DNA of 62,514 bases, filler included. It is 4 parts of 4 records of this genome, joined end to end, with 100 filler letters (N's around TTAATTAATTAA, not from the genome) between each part and the next. Parts side by side here need not be neighbours in the genome. Positions count along the whole stretch, not along the records: positions 39,233 to 49,015 come from SRR20825019_1207; 3 more parts are not named here. One strand, given 5' to 3'. Positions 2,770 to 49,795 of this stretch are shown here, piece by piece (the stretch's first letter is position 1; the number at the start of each line of letters is the position of its first letter). The notes beneath the pieces were generated by a model. That model was not told the DNA's origin and did not search any database. It saw nothing but the letters and a program-made list of their open reading frames with translations. The position numbers were made by a program, and so were the translations under genes.

Positions 2770-4376
2770 TCACTGCATGTACTTCATCACAGCGTGGAGT
2801 CCATAAACCATGGACGCTTGCCGCCTTGCCTCAAAGGACAGCATGGCTACATGGACCTTCTCATCAGGTCGAATCTCCAATCCCATATTGGAGAAATCCG
2901 TTCTCCCAAGTTGGTCAGGGCAGCATGTCACCTTCTTAACAAACATTTTCGTGGACCTATTCAAGAACACATTCACTTCCTGATAGTCGTAGTCATCATG
3001 CAACATTCCCAGCAATCTCTGTGCGTAATACCACACCCCACGCCTAAACGGCTGAGTATCAACATCCTGATTCTGACTGAAACTGTAATAAGTGAGGTCC
3101 CTCACCAAGTTGAACTCCGCATCAAGCACATTAGCAGCATCCGGGTAATAGCGATTGATCAGGGCAAACACGTGATCGTTCCAATTATAGCTTTGAACAC
3201 GGAAAATCTGATAGTCTTTCGATTTCACATCGAAGTCAACATAGTTATTGGGATAGCCTCCAGTAAAACGCTCATGTACCAAGGGGTTGCATCTTGATGT
3301 TGTCCGATTCACAGGGAAGTCTAGGCATACCAGTCATTAATCAGGAAATATAGTTGGGCACCACCACAACACTTACCGTCAGCTGCTGCCCTTTCAAACT
3401 GCTGAGCCCTCTCTTCATCTTCTGTGCACTGACTCTGATTGGGATTCTTTTGATTCTTCAGCAAGTCCAAAATATGGTCTGTTTCGTTTGTAGTTGATCC
3501 GTCGTCCTCGGTATCATACTGTTGGGGAGCGATCACTGTCGCAAAATCTACCTCGGGAGCCACCCCACACCCATTAACTACCCCGCAAAGAGCATGGAAC
3601 GTACTCATCAGCAATATGGCCTGAACAAGTTCCCCAACACTCCAAGCATCCCCCCCCTTGAGCAAGAGCTCGATATGACTCCGCCGCACAAGCCATGGCT
3701 GATGTGCAAGCATCGCATTCAGCTGCAGCAAGTCCTGCAATTTAGCTGGTGCCTTATCCACACCCTCGAGCCAGCTCGGATCGCCGTCGTTCATCAGGAA
3801 GTGTACGCCCTGATGTACAACAATGTAAGTGCAACCAAATCGACTTGCCGCCAGAATGGCAATGTAGTTCCTCCAGCTCGGAGGAAGTGGCCCGGCATCC
3901 CTCATCAAAAAGTCCATTGTCACATAAAATGAATCCAAAAACGTCTTGTGGCAACTGAACACATGCTCCAAGTTTGTGACAATACCATGGTTGCGACAGA
4001 ATATTTCTTCGTAGAGGTCTCTCAGTACTGTGTCCTCTGTCTGCACACTAGGCAGGAAGTTGTATCCTATGAAATAGCTAGGGTTTTCTGGAGCGGGCAA
4101 CGTCCACCCAAGGCCGCCAGCTTGCTGCACCAACTGCTCGCACGCGCTACGAATCTCTACAAGCGGGCTACCATAGGCCAGTCGCACCACCGTCGCCAGC
4201 CTCGTGTATAGCAATGAATCATGCGTTTCAGGCGTGCCTGGAGGAGCAGCGTCCCTCAATATTTGAACCAGTTCTTCGATTTCATCTTTTCTGTTGTCCA
4301 CACTAGTGGCAGTGACAGCAGGTTGGAAAAATAAAAGGTTGTCTCTGATCGCTGCAATTCCGTCGGCTATGTCCAT
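2770..4376 (-). CDS. SESN: Sestrin (PA26 family)
   Basis: Intron 3321-3376 (GTAAG...CTAG) joins the two ORFs in frame. Motifs GPLPPSWRNYIAILAASRFGC, LAHQPWL, WSVGELVQA, HDDYDYQEVN, EKVHV...EARRQASMVYGL. Confidence 0.93.
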
Positions 4377-4749
4377 GTCGCCAGCAGCTATTCACCACGA
4401 GCGGTTCCCAACCCGACGGGCCCCAGTATTCGTGACAAGGTTTGTACTCTTAACACCTTCCGATATTCCCGATCGGCGAAACCGCAACTAGGTGACTGGC
4501 TGTGCAACGACCCATCTTACCGTACTTCAAGGCGGGTATTTGTTGATACAAATCATTTGCACACGCAAGACGGCTTGTGCTGGAGGAAGGAAGTCGTGGT
4601 TCTGAAACTTTGGCTGAGGCAGCCATGGCCTTCAACTGAGTGTCACCCACACCAAGCCTTCCTCCTTCCTGTTGCCGTGACGGTCTCGGCCGACGATGGG
4701 ATGTCGCGCTCCCAGGAACACATGGCACCGTCACATCATAAGTCATTGG

Positions 4750-5662: not shown

Positions 5663-7015
5663 ATGGCGTCAAGTATAAGCTTCCACTGCACTCAGGACCC
5701 AGCATGTACAGCCTACATATTCTCAACTGCCCGTCCCAAAATCGGAACTTTCACCACCAGACCTGAACATCGTGTTTCGCTAAGAGATGCCTATTATTCT
5801 GTCTCAAGCGACGATGACTCAGAAAGGCGCCCCGAAGCGCAAGAAGAAGAGAAAGAGGCTGAAGTTCTGCCATCTGAGAGTGGAAGTCTAGAGCCTGAAG
5901 AGCAAGAAATATTGCCGTATGCTTCGCCTCAGCGGAACTGGGCGGAGTTGCCCGACGATATTCTCCTTCGAATACTGGTTTGCTACTGTACACCGCGAGA
6001 GCGGTCCACAGTATCACGCGTGTGCAAAGGGTGGCGTCATTCAATGTCTTTAGTGAGCGCATATGCGCGCGTCAACCGCTATTCAATATCAGATTCCTGC
6101 AACGCATTCAGCAAGGTGAAATCGCTCGTTATGGAAGGTGAGTGCTGGTGTCTTAATGTTTGCGGAAACACTTAACATGCAACAGCGGAAGCCTTAGATG
6201 ATTTGGGATGCAAAGAGCTGATCAAAGTCCTAAAGAAGAGCAAGCAGATACACGGGATAGATATGACAGGTAGAAGGCAGTGTTCAATCCGTGAAATGAG
6301 TTTGACGGATTTTGTTTATTATAGTTATACCTACTCAATGCAAGCCAATCACGACACAGCGGCTGTTTTCTAACATTGGAGGATGTCTCTCCTATATACG
6401 GTTTTCAATAGCTCCTGCCAAAAGTCCTACAAGCTTTCACCCTCCCTTGAGCTGTTTGCTCCCTCGTGGTTTTCCTATGGTGTATGTCAATTTATCTGGT
6501 GAGTCGAGCCTGAATGAGGGGTATGGGTGTTGTCAACTAACATGTTGGAATAGACTGTAGATTAGAAGATGACGACGTATTTCCTGTTGTCGATGCCATA
6601 GGCGAATCAAAAAGTCTCCAAGTTCTTATTTTGGACAACAACAGATTGACCAGCGCCTGTGTATCCGACTTGTGCAACACTCGTGGCAAAATGAAAACTC
6701 TGTCTTTTTCATGTGAGCGTGATGGTTGTACCTGACGGTGGTTTACTTAGTGTTGTTTAGATAACCCCATGGGAAACGACGTTGCTGATGCTGTTTGCGG
6801 AGGGGGCCTGGAAAAAGGAAACTTGCCTTGTCTTGAAAATCTATTTCTCACAGGCAAGCACGATAAACCGAATGCTCCAGCTCTACTCATGTTTTGATAA
6901 TGCAGGGTGCCATTTGGGCCGACGAGGTATCAAGCAACTTCGTGCGCTAGTGCAAAGCAGGAGAACGAAACTTCAGTACATTGCGGTTGGAGGTAACACC
7001 ATATGTCACCTTTGA
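5663..7015 (+). CDS. F-box / leucine-rich-repeat protein (spliced)
   Basis: F-box WAELPDDILLRIL...SRVCKGWR. Introns 6138-6185, 6270-6324, 6499-6553, 6713-6760 and 6854-6905 (GC-AG) give LRRs LQVLILDNNRLT and LENLFLTGCHLGRRG. Confidence 0.85.
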
Positions 7016-7205
7016 GGCGGTTTATTCATTGGCATCAGGGATAGCATCAGATACAATATCCGATCTAGTGGGAACCGTACAAGGAGATGCAGTGATATCA
7101 AACTCATTGGCACGCTCGCCACCCAACAGTGGAGACATTCACAACCCGTTACTATACACCACAGGGTTCCATCATATCATGTAGCGCACAACCTGCGCAA
7201 CGCAA

Positions 7206-10200
7206 TCATAAGAATCCACTCTGAGGCTGTCTATTGTTATCCTGCATATAATACATGGGTTGAGCCTGTGCAGGATTGAATGCGCCTGCAACAGCCAAAC
7301 CGTATTGGGTTGGTGGCACACCCCACATTGGTGTTGCTCCTGTCCCCATAGGATGCATCAATCCGTGCGTACCGACTTCTGTAGACGGCACGGGCTGGCC
7401 CTGGTGGGGCACATGCTGGCCGTCTACCTGTGGAGAGAACGCACCAGGGCTATTTGTATTGACAGGTACTTGCGAAGGCACGGGGAGATGATAAACCAAT
7501 AGGCCATTCATATTGTCTGGTCCCGACCCCTGCATCCATGCGTTTTGGTCCACAATGGGTTGGTGCCATTGCGGTGCGTTCGGGACATTATTCCACAGGG
7601 TCACGTTGTGCCAGCAGTCCATACCAGCAGATGGAATGTTCTGCCATTGGTTACCACTCACATTCCCACCAAGAACGGCGCCGGCCGCAACAGCAGATTC
7701 CATGTCCACCAGATGCATGGACATCATGGGCATATATCCTGGGGTCACAGGATTGGGCAAAACAGCCGGCATTACCACTTGAGGTTGTGGGGGATGCTGC
7801 TGCACATGCGGCTGTTGATAGTGCGCCACTTGAGGAGTTGGCATCGGTTGCTGCCTCATAAGCACCATATTCCTAGAGGCTTGCATCTCTTCATTAGACA
7901 AGTCAGTGGGCTCTACACGGGCATTGATCGTTTCTCCTACAATTGCACCCAGATTCAATACATGAACGTCAAAATGATCAAGTACAGTCTCACCTTGTAA
8001 CTTTTGAAGAGTCTCCTCCGCCCTGTCGGCAACAGCGATATGCTGTGGGGGCAGTCCACTTTCATGAACCTCCCACATCTTCGCATATCCAACCTCGATG
8101 TCTCTCACCCACCTCTTCGTGTCGAAAAGAGGGCACGTCATGCGGTTATTCATGATCTTCTTCCGAATATTTGCCAATTCCCCATTTGGGTTCAACGCGA
8201 AAGACCTTGCTTTCTTCTCGTACTCATCAAGCGACGAAACCACCAGTTCAGGTGCCCCGACAGCTTGCACCAAGGACGCAGCTACCCGGGATGACATTTT
8301 CTCTTGCGGGCATGTCAGGATTGGGAGGCCAGCCCACAGCACATCAGTGCCAGTGGTGTGGGCATTGCACAGTGGTGTGTCCAAAAAAAGGTTGGCCAAA
8401 GCAGAGCGACGGATGTGTTCTGCCTTGTGAGCAACATCAGTAAATATCAACTGATCCTGAGGTACTCCTCTCTTCGCAGCCTCACGCCTAATGTTTTCCT
8501 CTCCAACGGCTGGAAACCGCAAAAGCCACAAAACCGAGTTAGGAACCGACAAGAGAATGCGGCACCAAACATCGAACACGCCAGGGTCAATCTTATACAG
8601 TTGATTGAAGTTGGCAAAAATAAACTTCCCCTCAGGTAATCCACACGACATCCGGGTTAGTGATGCAGTGTTTGTAACTGAATCCATGTAACTTTGAACG
8701 TAATCATTCACAAAATAGCAGTTAGGCATCCACACTAGCTTCTCTGCATACTGATGCGCCCTATCTGGGGGAGAGACAGTTTCATCAGTGATAAGATAGT
8801 GTATATAGTCCGCGCCCATTGAGCCGGCAAAACCCATGTAACTAACTTGTACAGGGGATGGACTTGCAGCAAATATCTCCGTGCGAGCTCCTTTCGTGTA
8901 GCCGTTAAGGTTGACGAGAATGTGAATTCTTTCTTTCCGGATCATCCGCGCAGCATTTTCCTTGCTTTGCCCGCTAATATCAATGAAGTGCTCAGCCCCC
9001 GTCATGATCTTTTGACGCCACTGAGAATTATCACTTGGAGACAGAGAAAAACAAAATATTTCAAACAACTGACGGTTATGCATCCCGAATACACTCTGCA
9101 TAAGATGAGCTAGAGGATGATTACCAAAATCGGATGATACATATCCAACACGAATTCGTTCCCTAGATCCATCAGCAAATGTCTGCCTTATCACAGGAGC
9201 AGATTCGAACTCCCGTCGCAGAATGGGAAGCACCATCGCCATATTCTCGTGAGCTCTTTGAGCGTAGATGCGAGAGATCTTCAGTTGCATTACGGGGTCC
9301 ATAGGATACACCATCGCATGGAATGGCTGGACAGGAGGAAGAAGGTTCTTCGCGATGTGATCAAGCTGCGCCTCAAATAATTGCTTAAACATCTCATCAA
9401 GGCCATCCCATGCACAAATAAATTGCAGGCTGTGAACAAGATTCGCAAACGCCTCTGGAAAACCAGGACGCAGCTCTAAAGCCTTCTTGTAATTTTCTAT
9501 CGCATTCACAAGGTCACCACTGTCCTTTTGAGTGGCAGCCAAATTACCGTAGGAGTCGGCAAGGTTCGGGTTCAATTGGATTGCCTTCTTATAGCACGCA
9601 ATGGCTTCTTCTGTTCTCCCAAGTTCACGTAATGTATTTCCCAAGTTAGATTGCGCATCTGCTAATGTGGGATCAATGCGTAGAGATTCCTGGTAATACC
9701 ACGTGGCCTCATGTAGCCTCCCACAGTCTTTGAGTAGAGAAGCATAATTATTGTACAAGGGAGCAAACTTTGGGCCATAGGATACAGCCGTCTCGTAGCA
9801 TTGCAATGCATCCTTAATGTTACCTAGATCCTTGAATGTGTTTCCAAGATTGTTAAGTGCGTGGCAGTGCGTGGGTAATACGGACAGCGCCTTTCTATAA
9901 CACTCGATAGCTTCGTTGGTCATGCCCTTACCCTTATATATGTTGCCTATATTATTGTGAGCATCCGCGTGTGTTGGATCAAGCTCGATCGCACGTTTGT
10001 ACGACTCAATGGCCTGATCCACCTTATGCAAATCATAATACGCAGATGCGAGGTTGCTGTGGCATATGGCAAAGGACGGTTTCACCCGCAACGCTTGCTT
10101 ATACATTGAGATGGCATCATCTATCATGCCGATCTCCTTGTATATGTTTGCAACATTATTGTAGGCATCTGCATACTGAGGATTTACAGCAATAGCGCAC

Positions 10201-26558: not shown

Positions 26559-26658
26559 NNNNNNNNNNNNNNNNNNNNNNNNNNNNNNNNNNNNNNNNNN
26601 NNTTAATTAATTAANNNNNNNNNNNNNNNNNNNNNNNNNNNNNNNNNNNNNNNNNNNN
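26559..26658. other. Artificial contig linker
   Basis: N44-TTAATTAATTAA-N44 (stops in all six frames); eukaryotic DNA on the left, bacterial DNA on the right. Confidence 0.99.
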
Positions 26659-37902: not shown

Positions 37903-38307
37903 ATGAGCGGCCTCGTCTATTACTCCAGCACCTCGGAAAACACCCACCGCTTCATTGAAAAGCTGGGTGTGAGCGGGGTGCGATTACCGGTGGACGCTGC
38001 CAGCGAACCGCCGGTGATGGACGAGCCTTTCGTGCTGGTGCTGCCCACTTATGGGGGTGGGGATGGCAAGGGCGCTGTGCCCAAGCCGGTTATCCGCTTC
38101 CTCAATGTCGCGAATAATCGCGATCTCATCCGCGGCGTTATCGCCGCGGGAAACACAAATTTCGGCACCGGCTACTGCCTTGCGGGCAATATCGTCTCGC
38201 AAAAGTGCGCCGTGCCGCTCCTCTATCGCTTCGAATTGCTCGGAACCGATGAGGATGTCACCAACGTCAGACAGGGACTGGAACGGTTTTGGACACGCTC
38301 ACATTAG
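37903..38307 (+). CDS. nrdI: Flavodoxin-like NrdI
   Basis: [35 protein letters not shown]. Confidence 0.96.
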
Positions 38308-39132
38308 ACCGCACCGAAGAACGACCGGCCGGTAAGCCTTCTCAGGATAAGAACGAGCAGGCGCTGGATTATCATGCGCTCAATGCCATGCTCAATCTCT
38401 ATGATGAGCAGGGCAAGATCCAGTTCGACAAGGACCGGCAGGCCGCCCACCAGTACTTCTTGCAGCATGTGAACCAGAACACGGTGTTCTTTCACAATCT
38501 GCGCGAGAAGCTGACCTATCTGGTCGAGGAAGGCTATTACGAGCAGGACGTGCTCGATCATTATTCCTTCAACTTCGTGCGTGACCTCTACGATTACGCC
38601 TACGACAAGAAATTCCGCTTCCCCACCTTCCTGGGTGCGTTCAAGTATTACACCAGCTACACGCTCAAGACCTTTGACGGTAAGCGTTATCTCGAGCGCT
38701 ATGAGGACCGCGTCTGCATGGTCGCGCTGGCCCTGGCGCGCGGCGACGAAGTGCTGGCCAGGAACCTGGTCGACGAGATCATTTCCGGCCGCTTCCAGCC
38801 CGCGACCCCGACCTTCCTCAATGCCGGCAAGAAGCAGCGCGGCGAGCTCGTCTCGTGCTTCCTGCTGCGTGTCGAAGACAATATGGAATCCATCGGCCGG
38901 GCCATCAATTCGGCGCTGCAGCTGTCCAAGCGCGGCGGCGGCGTGGCGCTGAGCCTGACCAATATCCGCGAGATGGGTGCCCCCATCAAGCAGATCGAGA
39001 ACCAGTCCTCGGGCGTGCTGCCGGTGATGAAGCTGCTTGAAGACAGCTTCTCCTATGCCAACCAGCTCGGCGCGCGCCAGGGTGCGGGTGCGGTGTACCT
39101 CCACGCCCACCACCCCGACATCATGCGCTTCC
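38289..39132 (+). CDS. nrdE: Class Ib ribonucleotide reductase alpha subunit, 3'-truncated by contig end
   Basis: [44 protein letters not shown]. Confidence 0.96.
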
Positions 39133-39232
39133 NNNNNNNNNNNNNNNNNNNNNNNNNNNNNNNNNNNNNNNNNNNNTTAATTAATTAANNNNNNNNNNNN
39201 NNNNNNNNNNNNNNNNNNNNNNNNNNNNNNNN
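39133..39232. other. Artificial contig linker
   Basis: N44-TTAATTAATTAA-N44. Confidence 0.99.
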
Positions 39233-39351
39233 CATCCCGGTCATGAAGTTCGAGAAGGGGGCATGAGCCCCCTTTTCCTCTCGCGGGGAAATCGAGGTGG
39301 AAGAGCAGGCTTCCACCTGATATTTTGGAAGAAAGCCTGCTGGATCACGAT

Positions 39352-39609
39352 ATGTCTCACTCTGTCGCTCAACTTGAGGTGTTCCCGACCGACCTGCAGA
39401 TGCGGCGGATCGATCCAGCCTGCAACATGCGGCGGTTTTACCGCATGAGCATTCAGCCCGATCTCTTTGGGGGCGCCAGCTTGGTGCGCGAATGGGGCAG
39501 CATTGGCGCGCGCGGGCAGATGATGATTGAGCAGCATCCAGATGAAGGGCGCGCCGTAACCGCGCTGATGAAACTTGCGGCGATAAAGAAGCGGCGGGGT
39601 TATGCATGA
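39352..39609 (+). CDS. Stand-alone WGR-domain protein
   Basis: RRIDPACNMRRFY...DLFGGASLVREWGSIG...KKRRGY (WGR motif reads WGS here). Confidence 0.85.
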   Translation: MSHSVAQLEVFPTDLQMRRIDPACNMRRFYRMSIQPDLFGGASLVREWGSIGARGQMMIEQHPDEGRAVTALMKLAAIKKRRGYA

Positions 39610-39659
39610 TGCGCGGCCGCGGTTCGAAAAGCGGGCAGACACAGGAAAACGAGGGGGAG

Positions 39660-39890
39660 ATGGCACTCGACACTGACAAGATCGATGATGCGGCTCTCGC
39701 GATCCTTAGCCTGACGCTGCATTACGGCGATCAGGTCTGGAAGGGAATCGATTGGGCCATCACCAACCGGCTTTTCGAGAAAGGCCTGATTTTTGATCCC
39801 AAAAACAAGGCGAAATCGTTGAGCCTGACCCCAGAAGGGGTCGCGCATGCGCGGGAAATTCTCGCGCGGGAGTTCAGCAAGGCCGAGTGA
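39660..39890 (+). CDS. DUF6429-like small winged-helix protein
   Basis: DKIDDAALAIL...WKGIDW...RLFEKGLIFDPKNKAKSLSLTPEG; RBS GAGGGGGAG. Confidence 0.75.
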   Translation: MALDTDKIDDAALAILSLTLHYGDQVWKGIDWAITNRLFEKGLIFDPKNKAKSLSLTPEGVAHAREILAREFSKAE

Positions 39891-40277
39891 CGGGCGGCTT
39901 TGCGGGACCTTACAGTCGTTCGCTGCATCTGCGCGCAATTTGCTCGCATCCGCATTTGCAGCATCAGCAACGCGCAGGGCGGCAAGCGGGCGTTCGCTGC
40001 GCTCCCGTCGAAAATCACCTGTCCTTCTGAAAGCAGTCATTCATTTGGGCGTAGAAACCAGTCGGCCGATCGGATGATCCGCCGCACTACACCGAGGCGC
40101 CTCCAGCAGAATCAACCTTGAAGCTGTTGGAAAGCCAGAGGGAATAGCCGAAAATCCCCGTTCTCTCTAACCCTACATCTTGTATCATGTTGCCTCAACC
40201 GCAATATCCGTAGTATGCTTTTGGTGAGCTGTTGCGTCAGCGATGGTGCGTATTATTGACCAATACTGAGGCAAACA

Positions 40278-41411
40278 ATGTTTGATGAACCTAAGGTGAT
40301 GTTCTGGCCAGTCGGCACAGGGGATAGCACAACTGTTGTCGTCCAGAATGGCATTGTTTTGCAGGTTGACTTGCGAGATCTTCATAGCGCTGGCGATGCA
40401 GACGATGATCATGCTGCCTTGGTCGACAAACTCGTAGAAAACCTCCCCACAGTGAACGGCAAACCATATCTTTCAACCTTTGCTTTGACCCACCCTGATA
40501 AAGATCACATTCAGGGCTTCCACGATTTGCTTGATCGCGTCACGATTGGCGAAATCTGGTTTACCCCGCGCGTCTTCATCGAGAACGATCAGGATTTGTG
40601 CGATGATGCAGTAGCCTTCAAAGAAGAAGCCGAGCGCCGTGTTCAAGAAACGATCAACTCAGGTGGTGACGTTGGCGCAGGTGATCGGGTCAGACTCATC
40701 GGATACGATGCCCTTCTCAAAGAAGATCACTTCGTCGGCTTCCCGGAAGATCGCCTGACTGTTCCTGGCAACTCGATAACAGAAATTGACGGTGTCGATT
40801 ACGAGGGAGACTTCAACGCGTTCATCCATGCACCATTCGCGGAAGAAACTGATGGTGACCGCAACAACACAAGCCTTTGCATGCAGGTTGTTCTGGGTGA
40901 TAACCCTTCCAAAGGGGGCGTTCTCCTGTTCGGCGACATTGCCTACCCGCGTCTGCGCAAGATCATCGACAAGACCAAGGAGGCTGGCAACGAGGAGTAC
41001 CTCGCCTGGAAAGTGTTCCTTGCACCGCATCATTGCAGCAAGTCGGCCATGTACCAAAAGGAAGGCGACAAAGAAGTTCTCAAGCAGGATATTCTTGATG
41101 ATCTGGCGGAGTATCAGGTTGATGGCGGCGTGATTGTCGCCAGCAGCGAAAAAATTCCCTTGCAGAATGCATCTGGCGAAAATCCACCGCACGCAAAAGC
41201 GAAGAAACGCTACGAAGAAATCGCTGATGGAGGTTTCCTCTGCACTCACGAGGATGGAGAAGACGGAGAGCCCCTGGTCTTTGATGTTTCCGACGGCGCG
41301 CTAGACGCTCCAGAAGTTGCGCAAGCGGCCGCTGCAAGGAAACTTGCCGATGCGGTTGATGATGCGCGCGGATCAGACAGCCCGCCCTCGGAACAGGTCG
41401 GGTATGGCTGA
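40278..41411 (+). CDS. ComEC/Rec2-type metallo-beta-lactamase-fold hydrolase with C-terminal ...VGYG tail
   Basis: VGTGDS, THPDKDHIQG (HxDxDH), NNTSL, FGDI, APHHCS; low-complexity linker ending in Gly. Confidence 0.88.
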   Translation: MFDEPKVMFWPVGTGDSTTVVVQNGIVLQVDLRDLHSAGDADDDHAALVDKLVENLPTVNGKPYLSTFALTHPDKDHIQGFHDLLDRVTIGEIWFTPRVFIENDQDLCDDAVAFKEEAERRVQETINSGGDVGAGDRVRLIGYDALLKEDHFVGFPEDRLTVPGNSITEIDGVDYEGDFNAFIHAPFAEETDGDRNNTSLCMQVVLGDNPSKGGVLLFGDIAYPRLRKIIDKTKEAGNEEYLAWKVFLAPHHCSKSAMYQKEGDKEVLKQDILDDLAEYQVDGGVIVASSEKIPLQNASGENPPHAKAKKRYEEIADGGFLCTHEDGEDGEPLVFDVSDGALDAPEVAQAAAARKLADAVDDARGSDSPPSEQVGYG

Positions 41412-43686
41412 TTTCACGACGAGAGGGCAACAACTTGCACTCGACCAACTCCAAGATATCGCGGCAGCCAGCGATGATACGATTGATATCGTTGACGTAA
41501 AGCCACCTGCTGGCCAAGGCCTTTCTCTTGTTATTCGCGTGTCTATTGATACGAGCGGATACGCTTATGAAGATGGCGGCTTCGACTATAGAAGGCGCGA
41601 GCCGCTGAACATTTTCGTGTCGCCGCATTTTCCAGTGGAACCGCCAAGGGTCTACTTCGCACACAAGCGCTTTCTCGGGCGCGCCCATGTGCAGTGGGGT
41701 GACTACCTCTGTTTGTACCAGGCAACGGATGTCGAATGGGCATCGCAGGATGGAATGTTTGGCCTGATCAAACGTCTGGACGATTGGCTGCGTGATGCTG
41801 CCCGCAATCAGCTTGACCCGGAGGATGCACCTCTTCACCCGCCAGTTGAATACACTTCCTCCGACATCAAACTTGCGGTCGAGATCGATGCGCCAGAGAT
41901 TGAAGATGGGAAATCCTTCTGGCTTGGAACAGGAAAACTAACCAGACGGAATGACCATTGCTTTGATATTTCAGAATGGTCCGAGACGCCGAGCTCGCTG
42001 CCGAAGGATGAAAAGTTTGCCGCAGTCGTGCTGCTCAATCAGGCCATGCCGATGGAGTACCCTGACACGATCAGCAAACTCATCACGACGCTGGAAGCTC
42101 GCGGAGTTCCCTTCGATCTGCTGTTCTCAATCCTGAAAATATTTGCCCTGTGCCAACCTGATAACGAACCGCTCTACTTCATTCTTGGCGCGCCCATGAG
42201 GCGAAGAGCGGCGGATGAGCCATTACGACAGCACCTCAGCGCCTGGAAGATGGATGCGGAGTATGTCAAAGCTCTCCAGGGCATAATTCTGGAAGAGAAT
42301 ACCGAGGCAACGCTGGAAGCCTGGAAGGTCGTTCTTGAGTGGGCAACCGAAGCCAAGACCGAATGGTGCCGCGTCTACGATAACCGTCCCGAGGTTACCT
42401 TTCGTCGGGACCAAGGCACCAAAGCCAGCTGGTTTCTTGGCAAGAAGATTGCGCTGTTGGGTTGTGGCGCGCTCGGCTCTCATATCGGTGAATACCTCGC
42501 TCGCGCTGGAGCCGAAAAAATTCGCCTGGTCGATTATTCAGCCGTCAATGCTGGCATCCTTGTTCGGCAGCAATTCCGAAACTATCAAGTCGGTTACTCA
42601 AAACAAAGCGCCTTGTCTGTACAGCTGCGTGCGATCAACCCAAAGGCAGACATCGATCATGAATTCGCCAACCTAACAAAAGGTTGGCCAGAGGCACTTA
42701 ATATCAGTGATTTCGATCTTGTCATCGATGCGACGGCGTCAAGACGGGTTGCCACCGCCTTGCAGCTTGATCTGACAAAGCACAATGATGTGCCGCCGAT
42801 GCTACGATGCGCGATCAGCGCAAATGCATCAAAAGGTATCGCCACTTTGAACATGCCTGGTTCAGCTTTTGGCCCTGCCGACCTATTGCGTCGCACCAAA
42901 GTCGCCGCAATGTCTGATAGCGGTTTGACAGATTTCGCCGAAGCGTTTTGGCCATTCGATCAGCACGAGCGAGGGTTTCAACCCGAACCAGGTTGCTCCG
43001 AGCCTACCTTCGTGGGATCAGCTGCAGATATCGCCTTTTTCGCATCCTCATTCTTCAACTTTGCAGCTTCGGCCTTGAGGGAGGGCGGTGACTCAAAGGC
43101 AACAGCATGTTTCGTTCGTGTGTCACATGATGACGGCTCAATGTCCTCGCATCTTGTCCCGCTTTGCCAACCCAGTATCCACGTCGAGGCTCATCATGGA
43201 TACCGCGTCCATCTCTCTCATCGCGCGCAATCAGCGATAGACAGTGAGATCAAGTCAAACGCCCGTACGGGCAGCGCTAAGGACGAAACTGGGGGTATCC
43301 TCCTTGGCGAAATTGATGATGCGCTGGGAATAATTTCGATTGATGTGGCCACAGGACCGCCGCCAGACAGCAAAAAGTCTCCCGAGCTTTTTGAGTGCGG
43401 CATTGAAGGGACGCACGCGCTTTGTGAATTCCACGCAAAAGAAAGCGGCAACTCAACGAAGTTCGTTGGAGTCTGGCATACGCATCCTGTTTCCATACCA
43501 AAGCCAAGCATGGTAGATCTTGGCGCCATGGCGCAGATACTCCATCTACAGGAAAAGACGCCGCGTCATGTTGTGATGCTGATCGTTGGTCATGCAGCCA
43601 CGCGTCCGACCTGGCGCTTTCATCTGTTCAGGCGCAATGAATTTCAAGTCGTTACCCTTGCCGCTGGGGAGAGTGTCGATGAGTAG
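41404..43686 (+). CDS. E2 - E1(ThiF) - JAB triple-fusion ubiquitin-like conjugation/deconjugation enzyme (Cap2+Cap3-like)
   Basis: E2 FPVEPP...AHVQWGDYLCLY; E1 LLGCGALGS, VD, RQ, DATAS, PEPGCSEPTF; JAB ETGGILLG, WHTHP...PSMVD. ATG overlaps the upstream stop by 8 nt. Confidence 0.92.
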   Translation: MADFTTRGQQLALDQLQDIAAASDDTIDIVDVKPPAGQGLSLVIRVSIDTSGYAYEDGGFDYRRREPLNIFVSPHFPVEPPRVYFAHKRFLGRAHVQWGDYLCLYQATDVEWASQDGMFGLIKRLDDWLRDAARNQLDPEDAPLHPPVEYTSSDIKLAVEIDAPEIEDGKSFWLGTGKLTRRNDHCFDISEWSETPSSLPKDEKFAAVVLLNQAMPMEYPDTISKLITTLEARGVPFDLLFSILKIFALCQPDNEPLYFILGAPMRRRAADEPLRQHLSAWKMDAEYVKALQGIILEENTEATLEAWKVVLEWATEAKTEWCRVYDNRPEVTFRRDQGTKASWFLGKKIALLGCGALGSHIGEYLARAGAEKIRLVDYSAVNAGILVRQQFRNYQVGYSKQSALSVQLRAINPKADIDHEFANLTKGWPEALNISDFDLVIDATASRRVATALQLDLTKHNDVPPMLRCAISANASKGIATLNMPGSAFGPADLLRRTKVAAMSDSGLTDFAEAFWPFDQHERGFQPEPGCSEPTFVGSAADIAFFASSFFNFAASALREGGDSKATACFVRVSHDDGSMSSHLVPLCQPSIHVEAHHGYRVHLSHRAQSAIDSEIKSNARTGSAKDETGGILLGEIDDALGIISIDVATGPPPDSKKSPELFECGIEGTHALCEFHAKESGNSTKFVGVWHTHPVSIPKPSMVDLGAMAQILHLQEKTPRHVVMLIVGHAATRPTWRFHLFRRNEFQVVTLAAGESVDE

Positions 43687-44854
43687 CAAGTCTTTCAAAT
43701 TCGGACTTGCGCTATCAGGCGGTGGCTCGCGAGCGGCAGCGTTTCATCTTGGATGTATGAGGGCTTTGAATGATCGCGGCATTCTCGATCAGGTCCTAAC
43801 GCTTTCCACTGTATCCGGCGGAAGTGTGATTGGCGCGCTTTGGGCATACTCGGACGATAGTTTCGAAGAATTTGATCAACGCATGCAAATTATTCTGCGC
43901 AAAGGGCTGAAAAAGGGGATCATCCGATACACCCTCTTTTCTGGCGAAGCGCCGAAGATCGTTGGGACGATCTTCACATCAGGCGTTCTCGCGGCGCTAT
44001 GCTCGTCGGCAAGGCTTCTGATTTCTGCGCTTGGGCTTGTCGGCATCAAACATGCGAGCCTGGATTCATTGAAGCTACGTCTTCAAGCACCGCTTCCCAG
44101 ATTTGCGAGCAGAACAACAGCCTTTGCACGATTTCTTGACGATGAGTATTTCAAGGGAACCCTCCTCAAGGGGGTCAAACGCCAGAACCTGAAAATCATT
44201 ATCAACGCGTCAGAGCTCAGAACCCAATCGGCATTTCGCTATGGCTCAATGGAATCTGGATGTTGGAGATTTGGAACGCTAACCGAAGACACGTTAGTCG
44301 CAAAAGCTGTTGCGGCCAGTGCCTCGTTTCCAGCCATCCTTCCAGCTTTGGATGAACAGCAGCGCTACATAAAGCGCGGTGAAACGGCCACGCATCGAAC
44401 AATCGTCAGTGACGGCGGCGTCTATGATAACCTTGGGACGAGTTGCCTCATCCCTAAGCGCGATAGCAGTTTTAGCACGAATGTGAATGAGACTGATTTC
44501 ATTATTGCCTGCGTCGCAGGCCAGGGCATTCCCGATGGTTCCTCGCTACCATATTTTTGGCCGTCCCGAATGATCGAGACGATTAACACAATTCATCGTC
44601 GGACTCATTCAATAACATTCGATCTCTTGCACCGTCTCAAGGAAAGCGGTGAGATTAAGGGTTTTCTTTTGCCGTATCTTGGGCAGAACGATGCTGCCCT
44701 GCCGTGTCCGCCCCCTGACCTCGTAGCGCGTGACAAGACGTTTGATTACCCAACGAACTTCGATCCGATGTGTCAGGAAGACTTGGAGTTGATCGCAAAG
44801 CGTGGTGAACAGCTCACCAAAAACCTAATCGAGACATATCATCCTGATCTTTGA
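43679..44854 (+). CDS. Patatin-like phospholipase
   Basis: LALSGGGSRA oxyanion motif, TVSGGS nucleophile, ASASFP, DGG; 8-nt overlap with the upstream gene. Confidence 0.92.
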   Translation: MSSKSFKFGLALSGGGSRAAAFHLGCMRALNDRGILDQVLTLSTVSGGSVIGALWAYSDDSFEEFDQRMQIILRKGLKKGIIRYTLFSGEAPKIVGTIFTSGVLAALCSSARLLISALGLVGIKHASLDSLKLRLQAPLPRFASRTTAFARFLDDEYFKGTLLKGVKRQNLKIIINASELRTQSAFRYGSMESGCWRFGTLTEDTLVAKAVAASASFPAILPALDEQQRYIKRGETATHRTIVSDGGVYDNLGTSCLIPKRDSSFSTNVNETDFIIACVAGQGIPDGSSLPYFWPSRMIETINTIHRRTHSITFDLLHRLKESGEIKGFLLPYLGQNDAALPCPPPDLVARDKTFDYPTNFDPMCQEDLELIAKRGEQLTKNLIETYHPDL

Positions 44855-44884
44855 AAGATTGATTGGCGCATAGCCAGCGCCGTC

Positions 44885-46114
44885 CTAGTCTCGGTGAAGT
44901 TCAAAATGGGCCCAGTAGTGATTCACTTTATCGACTTGGACAGGTCGAAATGGCCAGAGATCACGCAAGACATCTGCATGCGGATGTCCAAAACTGCGAT
45001 GCCCAGGATCCGAGCTAAAGATACTGAGCCCGGGTTCGATCATGGATGCAAGGCCGGTAAACCAATTGTTCTTTGAGCCATGATGGGGCACTTGAAACAC
45101 TGTCGGCTGGAAAGATCGTTTGTGTCCCAAATATCCGACCAAAGACTGCCATTGATGGTCCGTACTTAGATTACCATCACCCGTATAGATAACTGAGCCG
45201 TCAAATTTTTCCTCGAACCACGGCCAGTTGGTCCGCCAATGGCCGATGGGACCTCCATATAAGAATAGGCTAAGATCGTTGAGCTGAGACTTCGGGAATG
45301 TCCGCACGTAATGATCCTTCAGTTCCCGTAGCGCATCCTTGCGATCATTGTCGGAGCTGTTTAGGAGGGCATCGCGCAAATCATTCACTCGCTCGACAAA
45401 CCTCGCTACGTTCTGTGGCCTAGTCGTTGGATCGTTGTAGGGCACGAATTCCCAGAGGCTAGGGATGAACGCCGTGCCACGCGGATGCATCATCAGCATT
45501 TGGTAATGATGCCTTGCGCCTGACAGATATGACATCCATTCGGCCATCCAGTCTTGGTCGCCTTTCTCCTGGCGGATCTCTGCTTCGGCTTCAATCTTCA
45601 ACGGCAGATCGCCATCAGGGTCAAAGTCAGGCTCGCCGCCCCCGTCCGGATCAGCTGGTCCGTCACCATCAGAAAACGGCACAAAGACGATTTGATTGAA
45701 CCCGTCACCGGCTTGATCGACTAAGTATTGCGCTGGGTCGGTATAGAACGCAAATTCGGGATCGTCAGGTTCGAGCCCCTGCGCATATCCGATGGCGAGC
45801 CGGTGCCAAAGCGGGGCCCAAGGCAGCATGAGGGTGCGCGTACCCACATCGTTGAGCAACTTCACCATCCCGCTGATATGGTCAGCGTCAAAATGAGAAA
45901 TCACAACAAGATCTAGCCTGCGTCCATCTACGCGGCTCTGGAACTTACCAAGAGCGTTCCTCACCAGCCGTTGTGACGAGGATGTGCCGCAATCATAAAC
46001 CCATTGAAAATCCGGTCTCGAATGATGGTTAAAAGATGAACCAAGGGTAAGCCGCCCTGCGGAAAATAAGCCTTGGCCTACTGGGTGGAAACGATACTGG
46101 ACATGTATTTTCAT
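44885..46114 (-). CDS. Second ComEC/Rec2-type MBL-fold hydrolase
   Basis: PVGQGLFS, YDCG, SHFDADHISG, YTGD, QVPHHGS, FGHPH. Confidence 0.88.
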   Translation of the reverse strand: MKIHVQYRFHPVGQGLFSAGRLTLGSSFNHHSRPDFQWVYDCGTSSSQRLVRNALGKFQSRVDGRRLDLVVISHFDADHISGMVKLLNDVGTRTLMLPWAPLWHRLAIGYAQGLEPDDPEFAFYTDPAQYLVDQAGDGFNQIVFVPFSDGDGPADPDGGGEPDFDPDGDLPLKIEAEAEIRQEKGDQDWMAEWMSYLSGARHHYQMLMMHPRGTAFIPSLWEFVPYNDPTTRPQNVARFVERVNDLRDALLNSSDNDRKDALRELKDHYVRTFPKSQLNDLSLFLYGGPIGHWRTNWPWFEEKFDGSVIYTGDGNLSTDHQWQSLVGYLGHKRSFQPTVFQVPHHGSKNNWFTGLASMIEPGLSIFSSDPGHRSFGHPHADVLRDLWPFRPVQVDKVNHYWAHFELHRD

Positions 46115-46679
46115 CAATAACCTTCAAAAACTTGCAACTATTTTCTGTGACTCCAGACTAGCAACTTTTCCAGCCAACCCAATAGGCCAATCGTGACCGA
46201 TTGCATGACTCTGCAAGTTGCTGTGAAGCTCACCAATGACCGGAAGTGGCGCGCTCCGGCGGAACGTGGTTGGATGGATGTTGAGCCTTGCACCGATGAC
46301 CGCTTTGGTTCGCTGCGTTTGCGAGATTGATGGCATGGTTGAAGGACAGGTTTGGGCCGAACACGATGCTGCACCTGCGAAATAGGCTTCCATGCTGCGA
46401 TGTGCGTGACTGTAATGGTGAAGGTTTCGACATGGGCAAGCCCCGTAAGCGGGGCCGGGCTGCTGAGGCTCCGCCCTGAATTCTGACCTTGCTGTATTCC
46501 TGTGCCAATACGTCTTGGCCTGTCTCATCCTGAGCCATCCCAAGACGTTTGCCACATGGTCGCCTTCACGATCCGCTTTCAGCCCTGACGGGTCTGCATC
46601 CCTCTTGCAAGGCGGACGCTGCCGCCGGGCGAAGCCGAGGGGCTTTAGTCTTCGCCACCTGGCATAAGATTCAGAAGGG

Positions 46680-46949
46680 CTATGCGTCTGGCTTCTGGTC
46701 GAACAGAATAACGTGCGCGCCTTCTTCACTGTCAGGGTTGCCTACCAGCACGAACGGCATATCCGACCCGTTCTTCTCGTAGAGACGGCGGTATTTCATC
46801 TGGCCGCTGAGCGGATCGCGCACTTGGTCATAGCGAAAGCTGTGCTGAACGCCGTCTTCGATCCAGGCCTTGACGCCATCGGGGGTCACCAGTGCAAGCG
46901 GCGCGCCGTCAAGCAAGATTGTCTCGCCAACGTTGAAAATCTCTTTCAT
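46680..46949 (-). CDS. Hypothetical protein (89 aa)
   Basis: AGGAGA upstream; protein-like composition. Confidence 0.65.
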   Translation of the reverse strand: MKEIFNVGETILLDGAPLALVTPDGVKAWIEDGVQHSFRYDQVRDPLSGQMKYRRLYEKNGSDMPFVLVGNPDSEEGAHVILFDQKPDA

Positions 46950-47108
46950 CTCATGGGTCTCCTATCGGTCTTCTTTGGTAGCGTTACAAACCGTCGTCGC
47001 CTTTGCAACGATCTCTGCCCCGCGTGTTCCCTCTCTCGGTGTCATTGCCCCGGATCACAATCGTGTCCTGCTCCGGTCGCTCGCGAGCATTTTAGGGCTG
47101 GAGGCGGT

Positions 47109-47288
47109 CTATCCCGCGTCCTCATAGGGCTCGTACCTCAGGTTCGCGCCGTCCGCCTGATCAAAGTCATCGGACCATCTGGTACGGCGCATGCCGCAGC
47201 TCCATTGGAATACGACGCCGACCTCGACGTCTTCACCGTTTACCGACGCCCAAATGACTTCGACGGGGTAACCCGCATAATTCTTCAT
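47109..47288 (-). CDS. Hypothetical protein (59 aa; not in the ORF track)
   Basis: AGGAGA RBS; MKNYAGYPVEVIWASVNGEDVEVGVVFQWSCGMRRTRWSDDFDQADGANLRYEPYEDAG*. Confidence 0.6.
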   Translation of the reverse strand: MKNYAGYPVEVIWASVNGEDVEVGVVFQWSCGMRRTRWSDDFDQADGANLRYEPYEDAG

Positions 47289-47331
47289 GCTCTTCTCCTG
47301 ACCTCCATTTGGTCGGAGCCGCAGTAATCAG

Positions 47332-47811
47332 GTGGCAGGTATCTGCCTGTACCTATATATGCTTGGCCACCACAAAACGGAGTTTAGTAACTTGCTTTAC
47401 AGGCCTCTACATATTGCGCTCTTTCTGGGCGCGGCTTCATCCTCCGTCGCGGCCGAGTGGGAGATCGGCTTGTCGCGAGGTCTGGACACCTATGCTGCGA
47501 CTGCAAACGACGGGACTTTGCTCTTAGTTTGCGACCCAGACCGTGTCTACAACCCAAACGTGAGCCATGCGTACTTTTTGTCGCGTCAAAGCGATGGCAA
47601 AGCGCCACAACGCATTGTCTTTCTCGCGGCGACCGGAGAGCAGGCTGCCTTTTCTGTGCAGGACGGGATCGCAACGCAACGGGATGCTGATCCTTCCGAA
47701 TGGGCACAGCTCATCGATATGATCGAGGCGGGCGGTCAGATCGCTGTCGTGACCGCACGCGATGCCTTTACGCTGGATCAGGACGCGCTGCCCGGGCTTC
47801 GATGCCGCTGA
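47332..47811 (+). CDS. Hypothetical exported protein (start uncertain)
   Basis: Signal-like IALFLGAASSSVAAEW; Cys near each end of the mature part. Confidence 0.55.
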   Translation: MAGICLYLYMLGHHKTEFSNLLYRPLHIALFLGAASSSVAAEWEIGLSRGLDTYAATANDGTLLLVCDPDRVYNPNVSHAYFLSRQSDGKAPQRIVFLAATGEQAAFSVQDGIATQRDADPSEWAQLIDMIEAGGQIAVVTARDAFTLDQDALPGLRCR

Positions 47812-48457
47812 TCTTTTGAGTGAGCTCTTCGATCTCGGAGTGCAGCAGCGCCTTACCGAAGGCGGATAACAGCTGCGTCACCCCATAGACGTTGAGAGGG
47901 TCATCAATGCTTGTCTGCAACGCCGCCACAAGGGTGGCGTCGAGCCTGATCATCGATTTCATAAAGGGGGCACCAGTGCCTTTGGGCTCGGCCAGGCGTG
48001 GTCGTGCAGCGGAGGCAATCTCATGCCAGGTTGCGGTGTCGCGCAGGTTTTGCATGCGGGCGCGAACCGCTTTGATCAAGGCACGCCGAACGTAGTCCGG
48101 GTCAAGGCCAGATCGTTCTGCCAGCGCATCAATCCGTGCCTGATCCTCAGCCCCGATGCGCACGTAATAGGTTCGAGACTGCGCTTCGGTGCTATTGCTG
48201 CAAGCATCGTCCGCCAACGGCTGGGTGGATACCCCTGGGTTGATGCGCGCCGTTTCAGCCGAGGCTGCCTTTTCCCCTTTCCGGGGTTCTTTCTTGTCCA
48301 CTGAATTTGCCGCTGGGCCTTCTGTCGCGACCGCTGCCGCCGTACTCTGATTGAATGCGGCATATTTCGTGGCGCTCGTGGCGAACTGCCGCGATCGCGC
48401 CAGCCTGTCTTCGTTCGAGACAGCGGTCCCGGACCGGTTTGGAATCTTCCTAACCAT
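47768..48457 (-). CDS. VirC2-like tandem ribbon-helix-helix protein
   Basis: Disordered N-terminus; RHH TYYVRI...IDALAERSG...VRRAL; second repeat with DPL...AFG; 8-nt overlap with the ParA-like gene. Confidence 0.5.
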   Translation of the reverse strand: MVRKIPNRSGTAVSNEDRLARSRQFATSATKYAAFNQSTAAAVATEGPAANSVDKKEPRKGEKAASAETARINPGVSTQPLADDACSNSTEAQSRTYYVRIGAEDQARIDALAERSGLDPDYVRRALIKAVRARMQNLRDTATWHEIASAARPRLAEPKGTGAPFMKSMIRLDATLVAALQTSIDDPLNVYGVTQLLSAFGKALLHSEIEELTQKISGIEARAARPDPA

Positions 48458-49013
48458 TGGCAGCGTCCACCATGGCCTCGATGTCGCAAAGGACATCGCT
48501 GCACAGTGTCAGGGCTGAGGAAAGATGCCCCGCTTGCAACCGATGACGACGATCTTGTTCATAAATGTCCCGCACATATCCCAGCGGTCCGGTCAGCGGC
48601 ATGCGCTGGATCGCAGTGAGATGGGGCACCGGCGTGGGCAGAAGTGGCAGGGTTGAAATCACCTCGAAAACCTCAAGGTCCTGCCGGTGAACCCTGCGTC
48701 TTGCCGCATCACGCTCAAAGTCATCTCCTGCGGTCACGAAATCGATCGCGCGTTTGTCCGCGTTCATCAATACCGCTGAAAACAGCGGGGCGGGGTCATC
48801 CGGCCCGAGGGTCTCGATCATGCGTATAACCCATGTAAGGGTTTTCAGGGCCGCGACGAAATCCGATTGTACCGGCACGGCCGGCACCAGGATCATGTCG
48901 CAGGCCAGCGCCAGTGTTTCGGTGTCGGGGTGCTCGCCGGGGCGGGTGTCGATCAGAACCAGATCAACACCTTCAGCCTCAAAGCTGTCCAGCGCGTGGT
49001 AAAGGCCTTCAAC
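48450..49013 (-). CDS. ParA/VirC1-like ATPase, 5'-truncated by contig end
   Basis: Walker B DLVLIDTRPG, then ACDMILVP...DF...LKTLTW. Confidence 0.75.
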   Translation of the reverse strand, partial: VEGLYHALDSFEAEGVDLVLIDTRPGEHPDTETLALACDMILVPAVPVQSDFVAALKTLTWVIRMIETLGPDDPAPLFSAVLMNADKRAIDFVTAGDDFERDAARRRVHRQDLEVFEVISTLPLLPTPVPHLTAIQRMPLTGPLGYVRDIYEQDRRHRLQAGHLSSALTLCSDVLCDIEAMVDAANG

Positions 49014-49015
49014 GG

Positions 49016-49115
49016 NNNNNNNNNNNNNNNNNNNNNNNNNNNNNNNNNNNNNNNNNNNNTTAATTAATTAANNNNNNNNNNNNNNNNNNNNNNNNNNNNN
49101 NNNNNNNNNNNNNNN
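49016..49115. other. Artificial contig linker
   Basis: N44-TTAATTAATTAA-N44. Confidence 0.99.
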
Positions 49116-49444
49116 ACGCAATTGCCTTCGCAGAGCCGGTCCTGCGGGCAGATGCGGCCACAGATCTCCGGGAAATTATTGGTTGCGCTGGCGATTTCGT
49201 ACGCTTCTTCCAGCCGGCCCTCGGCCGTCAGCATCAGCCAGTCGGGAATGTTGTTCGACAGCGGACAATGCACCTGACAATAGGGCACACCGCACTGGGA
49301 ACACCGGCCAGCCTGCTCGGCCGCATGATCCTCCACGAACTCATCGTAGATCTCACCAAAGTCCTGCCGGCGCGCATCGGCTTCGCGCTTGGACGGCATC
49401 CGCTTGGCGGTGTGAACGAATTTCAGCATACGGTCGGTGGTCAT
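49116..49444 (-). CDS. gltD: Glutamate synthase small subunit, 3'-truncated
   Basis: RCSQCGVPYCQVHCP..NNIPDWL, NNFPEICGRICPQDRLCEGNC. Confidence 0.93.
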
Positions 49445-49795
49445 TCCACTCTCTCCCATGGCCCTTCGGGCCTTATTCCTCTTCAGGCTTGCCGCCGCCC
49501 GAATTGTCATTCTGACGGCACTATACCTCATCGGGGAGCGCCTATCTACGGAAAGGAAACAAAAAGGTCAATAGTTAGGACTAATTTTCTTGGAAGACGC
49601 CTTCGCCCTTATGGCGCACAACCGCATGCGCAAGACGTGATCAACATTTAGTCCCGTTTCGAGACTTTATCCCATATTCTTTCTGTCGCAACGGGATGTT
49701 ATATTCAGATACGCTGGATATGCGGGAGATCGGGGGTCCCGCAACGGCGCTCCTATTCCTGTCCCCCGACAAAAAAACAAAACCGGAGCCTAACG

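Follow-up and report, generated by a model that had tools for sequence, protein, structure and literature searches.

The question raised by the locus described here is which defence system is formed by three co-oriented genes at positions 40278-44854 of the window (the whole 62,514-nt stretch of DNA that was analysed), and what part a patatin takes in it. The genes encode a metallo-β-lactamase (MBL)-fold hydrolase, a triple fusion of E2, E1 and JAB domains, and a patatin-like phospholipase, called here g1, g2 and g3. We give a probability of roughly 60% to the reading that the operon is a 6A-MBL-type anti-phage system in a three-gene, patatin-bearing form, in which the patatin is controlled at the protein level. 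Since the window is made of four contigs chained by N(44)-TTAATTAATTAA-N(44) linkers (26559-26658, 39133-39232 and 49016-49115), across which gene neighbourhoods are not readable, the contig carrying the operon is 39233-49015 only (9,783 bp).

The trio lies on the + strand, with g1 (377 aa) at 40278..41411, g2 (760 aa, ATG start) at 41404..43686 and g3 (391 aa, ATG start) at 43679..44854. Each junction is an 8-nt overlap, ATGGCTGA at 41404-41411 between g1 and g2 and ATGAGTAG at 43679-43686 between g2 and g3, so that the overlapping stops and starts reported in a preliminary description of this DNA are confirmed. The catalytic motifs listed there are also intact, all of them being present and conserved in 30 E2-E1-JAB, 21 MBL and 25 patatin homologues. 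Both g1 (NF058524, 'anti-phage 6A-MBL system MBL-fold protein', 293.2 bits, cut-off 220) and g2 (NF058523, '6A-MBL system cap2_3 protein', 388.6 bits, cut-off 320) score above curated cut-offs, which identifies the core, as judged from its sequence, as the already named 6A-MBL anti-phage system. The preliminary description had given this name correctly; the system is not an uncatalogued one, its core being named and cited by later papers as phage-validated. That validation is reportedly the work of van den Berg et al. (2024, Cell Host Microbe). In their available sections, PMC13276650 names 6A-MBL a validated Pseudomonas aeruginosa defence and 10.1101/2025.09.30.679545 places it among validated P. 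aeruginosa jumbo-phage defences; according to these citing papers it is the P. aeruginosa system that was tested against phage, which is one difference from the operon described here. The system corresponds to operon type 6a of Iyer, Burroughs and Aravind (2006), 'usually two genes' in the part of that paper available (PMC1779556). No mechanism is given in the accessible parts of papers that cite 6A-MBL as validated (PMC11601596, PMC13276650, 10.1101/2025.09.30.679545), and the patatin link is a clue to this unsolved mechanism.

The second protein, g2, comprises an E2 domain (residues 13-166, 41440..41901; Pfam Prok-E2_A, 4.9e-32), an E1 adenylation domain extending from the ThiF match at residues 348-448 (Pfam ThiF, 6.4e-16) to the catalytic Cys531 (42445..42996), and a JAB/JAMM metallopeptidase domain (residues 624-739, 43273..43620; Pfam Prok-JAB, 3.3e-09), all on the + strand. 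The E2 catalytic Cys103 lies in YLCLY (codon 41710-41712), and the E1 part has the motif G353-x-G355-x-x-G358, with Cys531 in PGCS (codon 42994-42996). These residues, along with R367, D377, R388 and K400, are invariant in 30 of 30 E2-E1-JAB homologues, and the JAB residues E628, H692-x-H694, S702 and D705 are present in 29 of the 30. PADLOC, one of the checks proposed in the preliminary description, recognised g2 through its E1-E2 model (PDLC00857, 3.7e-92), which is of the type found in the cyclic oligonucleotide-based antiphage signalling system (CBASS), and through its JAB model (5.8e-23); it gave no match for g3, for which no NCBIfam family was matched either. The nearest PDB relative of g2 by sequence is the Cap2 structure 7to3 (6.4e-10), and the Cap3 model NF050170 reached 37.1 bits on g2 against a cut-off of 200. 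The fusion is thus Cap2+Cap3-like, and its relation to these two proteins is, as far as sequence goes, one of homology and not of equivalence.

The third protein matches Pfam Patatin (PF01734) over residues 10-254 (2.8e-17; 64 bits, cut-off 27.7). It has the motifs G14-G15-G16, T-V-S-G-G with Ser46, and D245-G-G, the Ser46-Asp245 dyad being encoded at 43814-43816 and 44411-44413. Residues S46, G47, G48, D245, G246 and G247 are invariant in 25 patatins and G14-G16 invariant or nearly so, and the first position of the nucleophile elbow, Thr in g3, is G, A, S or T in relatives. With these features g3 bears the marks of a patatin-like phospholipase and is predicted to be a lipid acyl hydrolase. 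An AlphaFold2 (AF2) model of g3, with a predicted local distance difference test (pLDDT) score of 84.1 and a predicted template modelling (pTM) score of 0.84, matched PlpD, CapE, plant patatin, CapV, VipD and cPLA2 in Foldseek (E 1e-10 to 1e-6, 10-18% identity), the first four at E 1e-10 to 1e-8. The model and the hydropathy profile indicate a long-helix insert at about residues 90-158, hydrophobic over about residues 90-135 and with a hydrophobic stretch at 102-123. The family is large, with 3,367 proteins at E<=1e-5 among 7,998 scored.

The patatin is a conserved and often fused partner of the E2-E1-JAB protein, and it occupies a slot that sister systems fill with a multi-transmembrane (multi-TM) protein. 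Two genome samples were used, 401 genomes from the phylum and 401 from the class, with the centre genome G001 in both; NF058523 was above cut-off in 10 and 6 of them, respectively. From both samples came 16 6A-MBL loci, including one further locus split by an insertion sequence (IS). A patatin of the g3 family is found in five of the 16, downstream in G001, L037 and L038, upstream in L122 and fused in L123. Eight loci (L029-L032, L034, L036, L119 and L120) have a multi-TM protein of 207-288 aa after or near the E2-E1-JAB gene, and in L029, L031, L032 and L036 its gene overlaps the E2-E1-JAB stop by 4 nt. None of these proteins matched a model in Pfam or NCBIfam, and by homology they divide into two groups or more, L029-L032 (1e-27 to 1e-91) and L036/L120 (8e-22). 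The co-occurrence of patatin that the preliminary description proposed to survey is borne out for these five loci and for the whole clade of g2 (see below), and does not extend to the eight loci with a multi-TM protein instead or to three with neither. In one of these three, L035 (G122), a gene for a DNA/RNA non-specific endonuclease (Endonuclease_NS, 2.4e-38) lies at 1979-2836, two genes past the E2-E1-JAB gene, where others have the TM or patatin gene.

A search starting from the patatin covered 80 metagenome loci, 26 of them with a patatin of the same family and 17 of those with at least 3 kb of upstream sequence. Among these 17 loci, a fused E2-E1-JAB gene is present in 10, and four have an unfused cassette made of a UQ_con-like E2, a ThiF E1, a JAB protein and a small ComEC-like MBL; of the remaining three, two have nothing, and in the other a 6A-type MBL at the end of the contig is all that is present. 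The small MBLs of the unfused type gave ComEC_Rec2 matches. Unfused cassettes with a g3-family patatin (~44% identity) occur in L043-L049 (e.g. L046 2431-7188), which are soil-type metagenome contigs; the E2 has 126 aa, the E1 298 aa, the JAB protein 305 aa and the MBL 286 aa, the last ending in an Ala-rich tail. In other relatives the patatin and the ligase are one protein. Single open reading frames (ORFs) encoding E2-E1-JAB-patatin fusions were found in L050 (1,162 aa), L041 (partial), L116 and L123 (1,166 aa). A survey of proteins longer than 685 aa gave 758 relatives of g3 at E<=1e-10; all of the 120 listed have Patatin and Prok-JAB domains, and at least 110 of these 120 have ThiF and Prok-E2_A as well, mostly with lengths of 1,150-1,170 aa.

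These fusions bear directly on the possibility that the patatin is an unrelated neighbour behind a two-gene 6A-MBL system. The curated definitions do include two genes only, in agreement with the 'usually two genes' of the available part of Iyer et al. 2006 (PMC1779556). However, the g2/g3 overlap, the presence of a patatin throughout the g2 clade, the recurrent fusions and the occurrence of the trio on Actinomycetota plasmids all speak against it, and the segment common to other genomes in blastn comparisons shrinks to 39970-45097, which holds exactly the three genes alone. The same MBL/E2-E1-JAB/patatin trio is annotated on Ruegeria, Rhodococcus pyridinivorans and Streptomyces plasmids. Because of the fusions in particular, we regard the unrelated-neighbour explanation as effectively refuted, and the patatin as a real, integrated component, as the preliminary description had held. 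The patatin clade, the fusions and the multi-TM slot together suggest that two-gene definitions of 6A-MBL are incomplete. The NCBIfam models do not cover the patatin-bearing clade, the fusions or the TM/patatin slot. No paper reached by our literature searches links a patatin with operons of this type, although supplements may list such operons, and the word 'patatin' is absent from the texts of Iyer 2006, Chambers 2023 and Gong 2024. On a Rhizobium plasmid, two short ORFs stand at the patatin position.

The linkage also has a phylogenetic side. A tree built from 30 E2-E1-JAB proteins (quick IQ-TREE, with SH-aLRT support only) places g2 in a clade of 12 rows, all 12 of them patatin-linked, which is divided by a branch of 2.17 (SH-aLRT 100) from a clade of 18 rows with TM, patatin and other states mixed. 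At least five changes of the third-gene state are needed on this tree. The mix of state labels is biased, because 14 of the 30 rows come from the patatin-first metagenome search; the swaps within the 18-row clade are unbiased. The operon resembles known 6A-MBL systems in its E2-E1-JAB triple fusion adjoining a co-oriented, specialised MBL gene with the same domain order and both proteins above cut-off, in its intact E2, E1, JAB and MBL catalytic residues and in the flexible, Gly-ended MBL tail, a trait of the family seen here. It differs from them in the deeply separated clade of g2, in the form of the tail (VG[YF]G here as opposed to PRAG or xHG in the other clade) and in the patatin itself.

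Pfam gave no match to g1, which has the metal motif H72-P-D74-K-D76-H77 (codons from 40491); in the alignment of 21 MBL homologues, H72, D76, H77, D220, H251 and H252 are invariant. In its AF2 model (pLDDT 87.5, pTM 0.88), residues 367-377 fall below a pLDDT of 50. The top PDB match in Foldseek was the β-lactamase-like domain of ComEC (9ic4; E 7.6e-14, TM-score 0.71 on the target, 20% identity), followed by Pce phosphorylcholine esterase, ELAC and RNase J-type enzymes. These matches point to g1 being, as far as the model tells, a phosphodiesterase or nuclease-type hydrolase rather than a synthase. ComEC has a metal motif of the HxDxDH type and is the best structural match, but g1 differs from it in being soluble and stand-alone, with an added helical C-terminal region and Gly tail, and in lying outside a DNA-uptake channel.

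The fold opens a nuclease-first explanation, in which the ComEC-like MBL would be the true effector, degrading phage or host DNA, while the patatin or TM protein would localise it or sense at the membrane. The ComEC match and the ComEC_Rec2 matches of the related small MBLs agree with this, and since the MBL domain of ComEC is attached to a membrane channel, the 4-TM partner proteins echo that arrangement. The loci with neither patatin nor TM gene also fit, for they still have an intact E2-E1-JAB gene alongside an MBL gene. However, the Ser-Asp dyad is invariant and the oxyanion loop kept in 25 diverse patatins, which indicates selection for catalysis and not for anchoring, and we consider the nuclease-first explanation improbable.

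The C-terminus of g1 suggests another function for the MBL, that of a conjugated protein. Residues ~365-377 (41370..41408, + strand; ...SDSPPSEQVGYG) form the end of an Ala-rich linker closing with ...EQVGYG, its last residue being Gly377, and are proposed here, on the pLDDT values and the conserved Gly, as the E1 substrate end. MBL homologues end in PRAG, xHG or VG[YF]G, placed exactly at the terminus or followed by 1-6 residues, and all rows of the 21-row alignment have an x-G that is terminal or lies 1-6 residues short of the terminus, L074 being ambiguous. In the metagenome loci the Gly tail is present in 15 of 16 intact 6A-type MBLs adjoining a fused E2-E1-JAB gene, the remaining one ending in PRVA, as opposed to a terminal Gly in one of 12 MBLs that have no E1 nearby. 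A disordered C-terminus ending in a small residue is described for the cGAS of type II CBASS in the available part of 10.1101/2022.03.31.486616, and Corbett's group writes, in the accessible text of PMC11601596, of 'MBL pathways' in which the MBL is conjugated to 'unknown targets'. The conserved, disordered, Gly-ended tail supports the MBL as E1 substrate by this parallel with cGAS, and the MBL as conjugated component, proposed in the preliminary description, fits both the tail and these 'MBL pathways'.

By analogy with Cap2, Cap3 and the cGAS/DncV-like nucleotidyltransferase (CD-NTase) of type II CBASS, the E1 domain would adenylate Gly377 of the MBL, which would be handed as a thioester to Cys531 and then to Cys103 before being ligated to a target, and the JAB domain would take the conjugate off. 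In relatives with 1-6 residues past the Gly, the JAB domain may also trim the MBL precursor. Conjugation would turn the system on during infection. The patatin, whose hydrophobic helical insert probably keeps it at the membrane, would be the killing or growth-arresting effector, as the architecture suggests, and the complex of MBL and E2-E1-JAB, rather than a diffusible nucleotide, would govern it directly. Membrane damage leading to abortive infection is a plausible outcome. The MBL may possibly cut nucleic acid too. The patatin clade offers a candidate effector open to assay, a predicted lipase with a Ser-Asp dyad, and the natural fusions tie this candidate physically to the ligase.

Several observations weigh against this patatin-effector reading. 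The conjugation of the MBL is itself drawn by analogy. The clade of g2 barely passes the NF058523 cut-off (339-389 bits, against 435-673 in the other clade) and a long branch lies between the two. Of the 16 6A-MBL loci, three have neither patatin nor TM gene and still keep an MBL gene with intact E2-E1-JAB, the MBL gene being frameshifted in L121 and beyond the contig end in L035. Protein g3 is no closer to CapV and CapE, which are activated by cyclic nucleotides, than to PlpD or plant patatin, and this lack of closeness is uninformative on its mode of activation. Finally, adjacent and co-oriented pairs of an MBL and a distant patatin (L076, L077, L078, L081, L082, L085, L095, L101 and L115) have no E1, E2 or JAB gene within the fetched flanks, and their MBLs have no Gly tail; six of eight tested MBLs from such pairs pass Pfam Lactamase_B. 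These ligase-less pairs indicate that the patatin needs no ligase, so that MBL and patatin may be connected by a small molecule or in some other way.

It is here that a signalling explanation enters, in which the MBL would replace the CD-NTase as an enzyme that generates or processes a signal, be primed by conjugation, and give a diffusible product, other than a cyclase-made cyclic oligonucleotide, that activates the patatin or the TM protein. The architecture mirrors that of CBASS, and minimal MBL and patatin pairs exist without E1, E2 and JAB next to unfused and fused ligase versions. CapV and CapE show, to go by the titles of their structures, that a patatin needs no additional sensor domain to be nucleotide-gated, and in the available part of PMC11601596 Corbett's group terms the MBL a 'signaling enzyme'. 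However, the MBL fold is hydrolytic, and the best match of the model is a nuclease-type domain and no synthase. Moreover, at least 110 clusters fuse the patatin to E2-E1-JAB, which would be needless for a diffusible signal, and neither the patatin nor the TM proteins of 207-288 aa have an evident ligand-binding domain. We therefore find a diffusible product unlikely. The preliminary description had proposed activation of the patatin by a signal other than a cyclic oligonucleotide, and the E2-E1-JAB-patatin fusions point rather to direct coupling between proteins.

The absence of a cyclase, also claimed in the preliminary description, holds on the operon's contig, 39233-49015, and the claim is to be read for this contig only, the window being four contigs. 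No CD-NTase or other cyclase was found there among the scanned ORFs of at least 120 aa, not every ORF having been compared with every library, and no ubiquitin-like gene is evident among 70 ORFs of 40-140 aa, judged without a fold test. Six of these 70 small ORFs end in Gly, which is no enrichment, and none of them is conserved with the module or plausibly placed. In homologous neighbourhoods, 117 ORFs of 200-640 aa from 31 loci, chosen from 174 candidates of at least 130 aa, were scanned, and no cyclase family was seen among the 25 commonest of 100 matched Pfam families, beyond which single occurrences are invisible; this agrees with what the preliminary description would lead one to expect of such a survey.

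The operon thus resembles type II CBASS in its Cap2-like E2-E1, its Cap3-like JAB and a patatin-fold gene at the effector position, together with a partner enzyme whose disordered C-terminus ends in a small residue, as in cGAS (10.1101/2022.03.31.486616, in its available part). It differs from type II CBASS in that there is no CD-NTase in the operon, the proposed conjugated enzyme being an MBL of hydrolase fold, and Cap2 and Cap3 are fused. Protein g3, moreover, appears to stand outside the CapV family, with no PADLOC match and 13-14% identity in the fold matches, and in many relatives the patatin is fused to the ligase. CBASS is not known to have an equivalent of such a patatin-ligase fusion. 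The Bil/Bub systems share the use of E1, E2 and JAB-type chemistry in an anti-phage setting (PMC11601596 and PMC13276650, in their accessible sections), but there a separate ubiquitin-like protein is conjugated, and no such ORF was found on the contig of the operon.

A broader picture can be put forward only tentatively, and we would sooner doubt it than rely on it. It is that 6A-MBL may be one face of a wider, CBASS-like modular family with a ComEC-type MBL in the place of the cyclase. The minimal form would consist of the MBL and a membrane effector, either a patatin or a small multi-TM protein, and 'type II-like' forms would add E2, E1 and JAB, unfused, fused, or fused to the patatin. Defence would be executed by the membrane effector rather than by the MBL; the conjugated MBL would switch that effector directly, at the protein level, perhaps through its ligation to the effector itself or to a membrane-located phage protein.

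The module moves between marine Roseobacter-group genera. Proteins with 91-100% identity to g2 are encoded in eight loci, from Sulfitobacter (three records), Rhodobacter sp., a Paracoccaceae metagenome-assembled genome (MAG), Chachezhania, a Pelagibaca MAG and a Tateyamaria plasmid. In six of the eight, module DNA is 99.3-100% identical and the flanks differ; such 99-100% identity is found in Sulfitobacter, Rhodobacter, Chachezhania and the unclassified Paracoccaceae MAG, while the Tateyamaria plasmid copy has ~89% DNA identity. A plasmid search at the DNA level returned one short match only. The operon stretch is present in public runs from 11 studies. The spread at 99-100% identity makes the module relevant to phage-host dynamics in these marine genera.

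The surroundings of the module include integrases, transposases and WYL, AbiE-like and IrrE-like genes. The commonest neighbouring Pfam families were Lactamase_B (5), WYL (4), Phage_integrase (3), AAA_21 (3) and Peptidase_M78 (3), with parts of IS66 transposases, Endonuclease_NS (2) and Patatin (2) also common. Such a setting could be taken to mean that the module has no role in phage defence and instead serves a mobile element, by plasmid addiction or exclusion of rivals, or remodels membrane lipids; its location on plasmids and islands near transposases, integrases and conjugation genes would suit this. However, the sister clade is cited as phage-validated (PMC13276650 and 10.1101/2025.09.30.679545, in the parts available), the NCBI family is named 'anti-phage', and AbiE, IrrE/HTH (helix-turn-helix) and WYL neighbours are typical of defence islands, so that a function outside phage defence seems very unlikely. 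On the Ruegeria plasmid NZ_CP065363 (L009, 2253-3523), the genes immediately preceding a diverged MBL/E2-E1-JAB/patatin trio encode an ImmA/IrrE peptidase, an HTH regulator and a DUF2188 protein, and an AbiE toxin-antitoxin pair is adjacent. No ImmA/IrrE and HTH regulator pair of this type was seen on the operon's contig.

Several loci carry traces of rearrangement. In L038 (G011), the E2-E1-JAB gene is split at 6241-8651 by ~2.4 kb containing a 525-aa ORF, and a second ORF of equal length lies at 2115-3692; the neighbour scan gave two occurrences of IS66 families. A DDE transposase (DUF772/DDE_Tnp_1; 3038-4575) lies in L002 at window position 39980, just upstream of g1. Locus L039 (5076-6008) encodes a patatin 93% identical to g3, only ~310 C-terminal residues of the E2-E1-JAB ORF remain, and no MBL match was found in the 5.9 kb upstream; it may be a decayed copy of the module.

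Upstream of g1, a non-coding leader (39970..40277, + strand) forms the left edge of the module common to other genomes, blastn identity to L004, L005 and L008 starting at 39970-39976. A Shine-Dalgarno-like GAGG lies 8-11 nt ahead of the g1 ATG. A promoter scan gave three sigma-70-like sites where 4.7 are expected, and none of these lies ahead of g1 on the + strand. RNA libraries from three studies contain contigs that match the operon at 99% identity or more; one spans the g1/g2 junction (40554-41865) and two span that of g2 and g3 (42922-46189 and 43082-43917), the longest of them (42922-46189) continuing through the convergent gene that follows. In X15 and X16 the RNA-library contigs begin at 40284-40294 and 40011-40247 has no cover, a gap to which we attach no meaning. 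Because DNA carry-over is possible in RNA libraries, these contigs give a weak hint that the operon is expressed.

An ORF at 46124-46729 (201 aa) is of odd composition, matched no family and is probably no gene, and another at 39185-39679 is invalid, as it spans an N linker. The idea that an insertion had cut nrdE (38289-39188) and a gltD fragment (49064-49531) was rejected, since both lie on other contigs, beyond the N linkers. The convergent gene downstream, 30 nt past the g3 stop (44885..46117, - strand), encodes a second MBL-fold protein of 410 aa, with Pfam Lactamase_B (9.9e-08) at its N-terminus and weak matches to LmuA, Avs1a and ComEC. It accompanies the operon in L001 (partial), L002, L004, L006 and L008 and not in L005 or L007, and is possibly an optional accessory of the system. 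A second MBL gene is also found near the 6A-MBL pair in L030, L031, L032, L035, L119 and L120.

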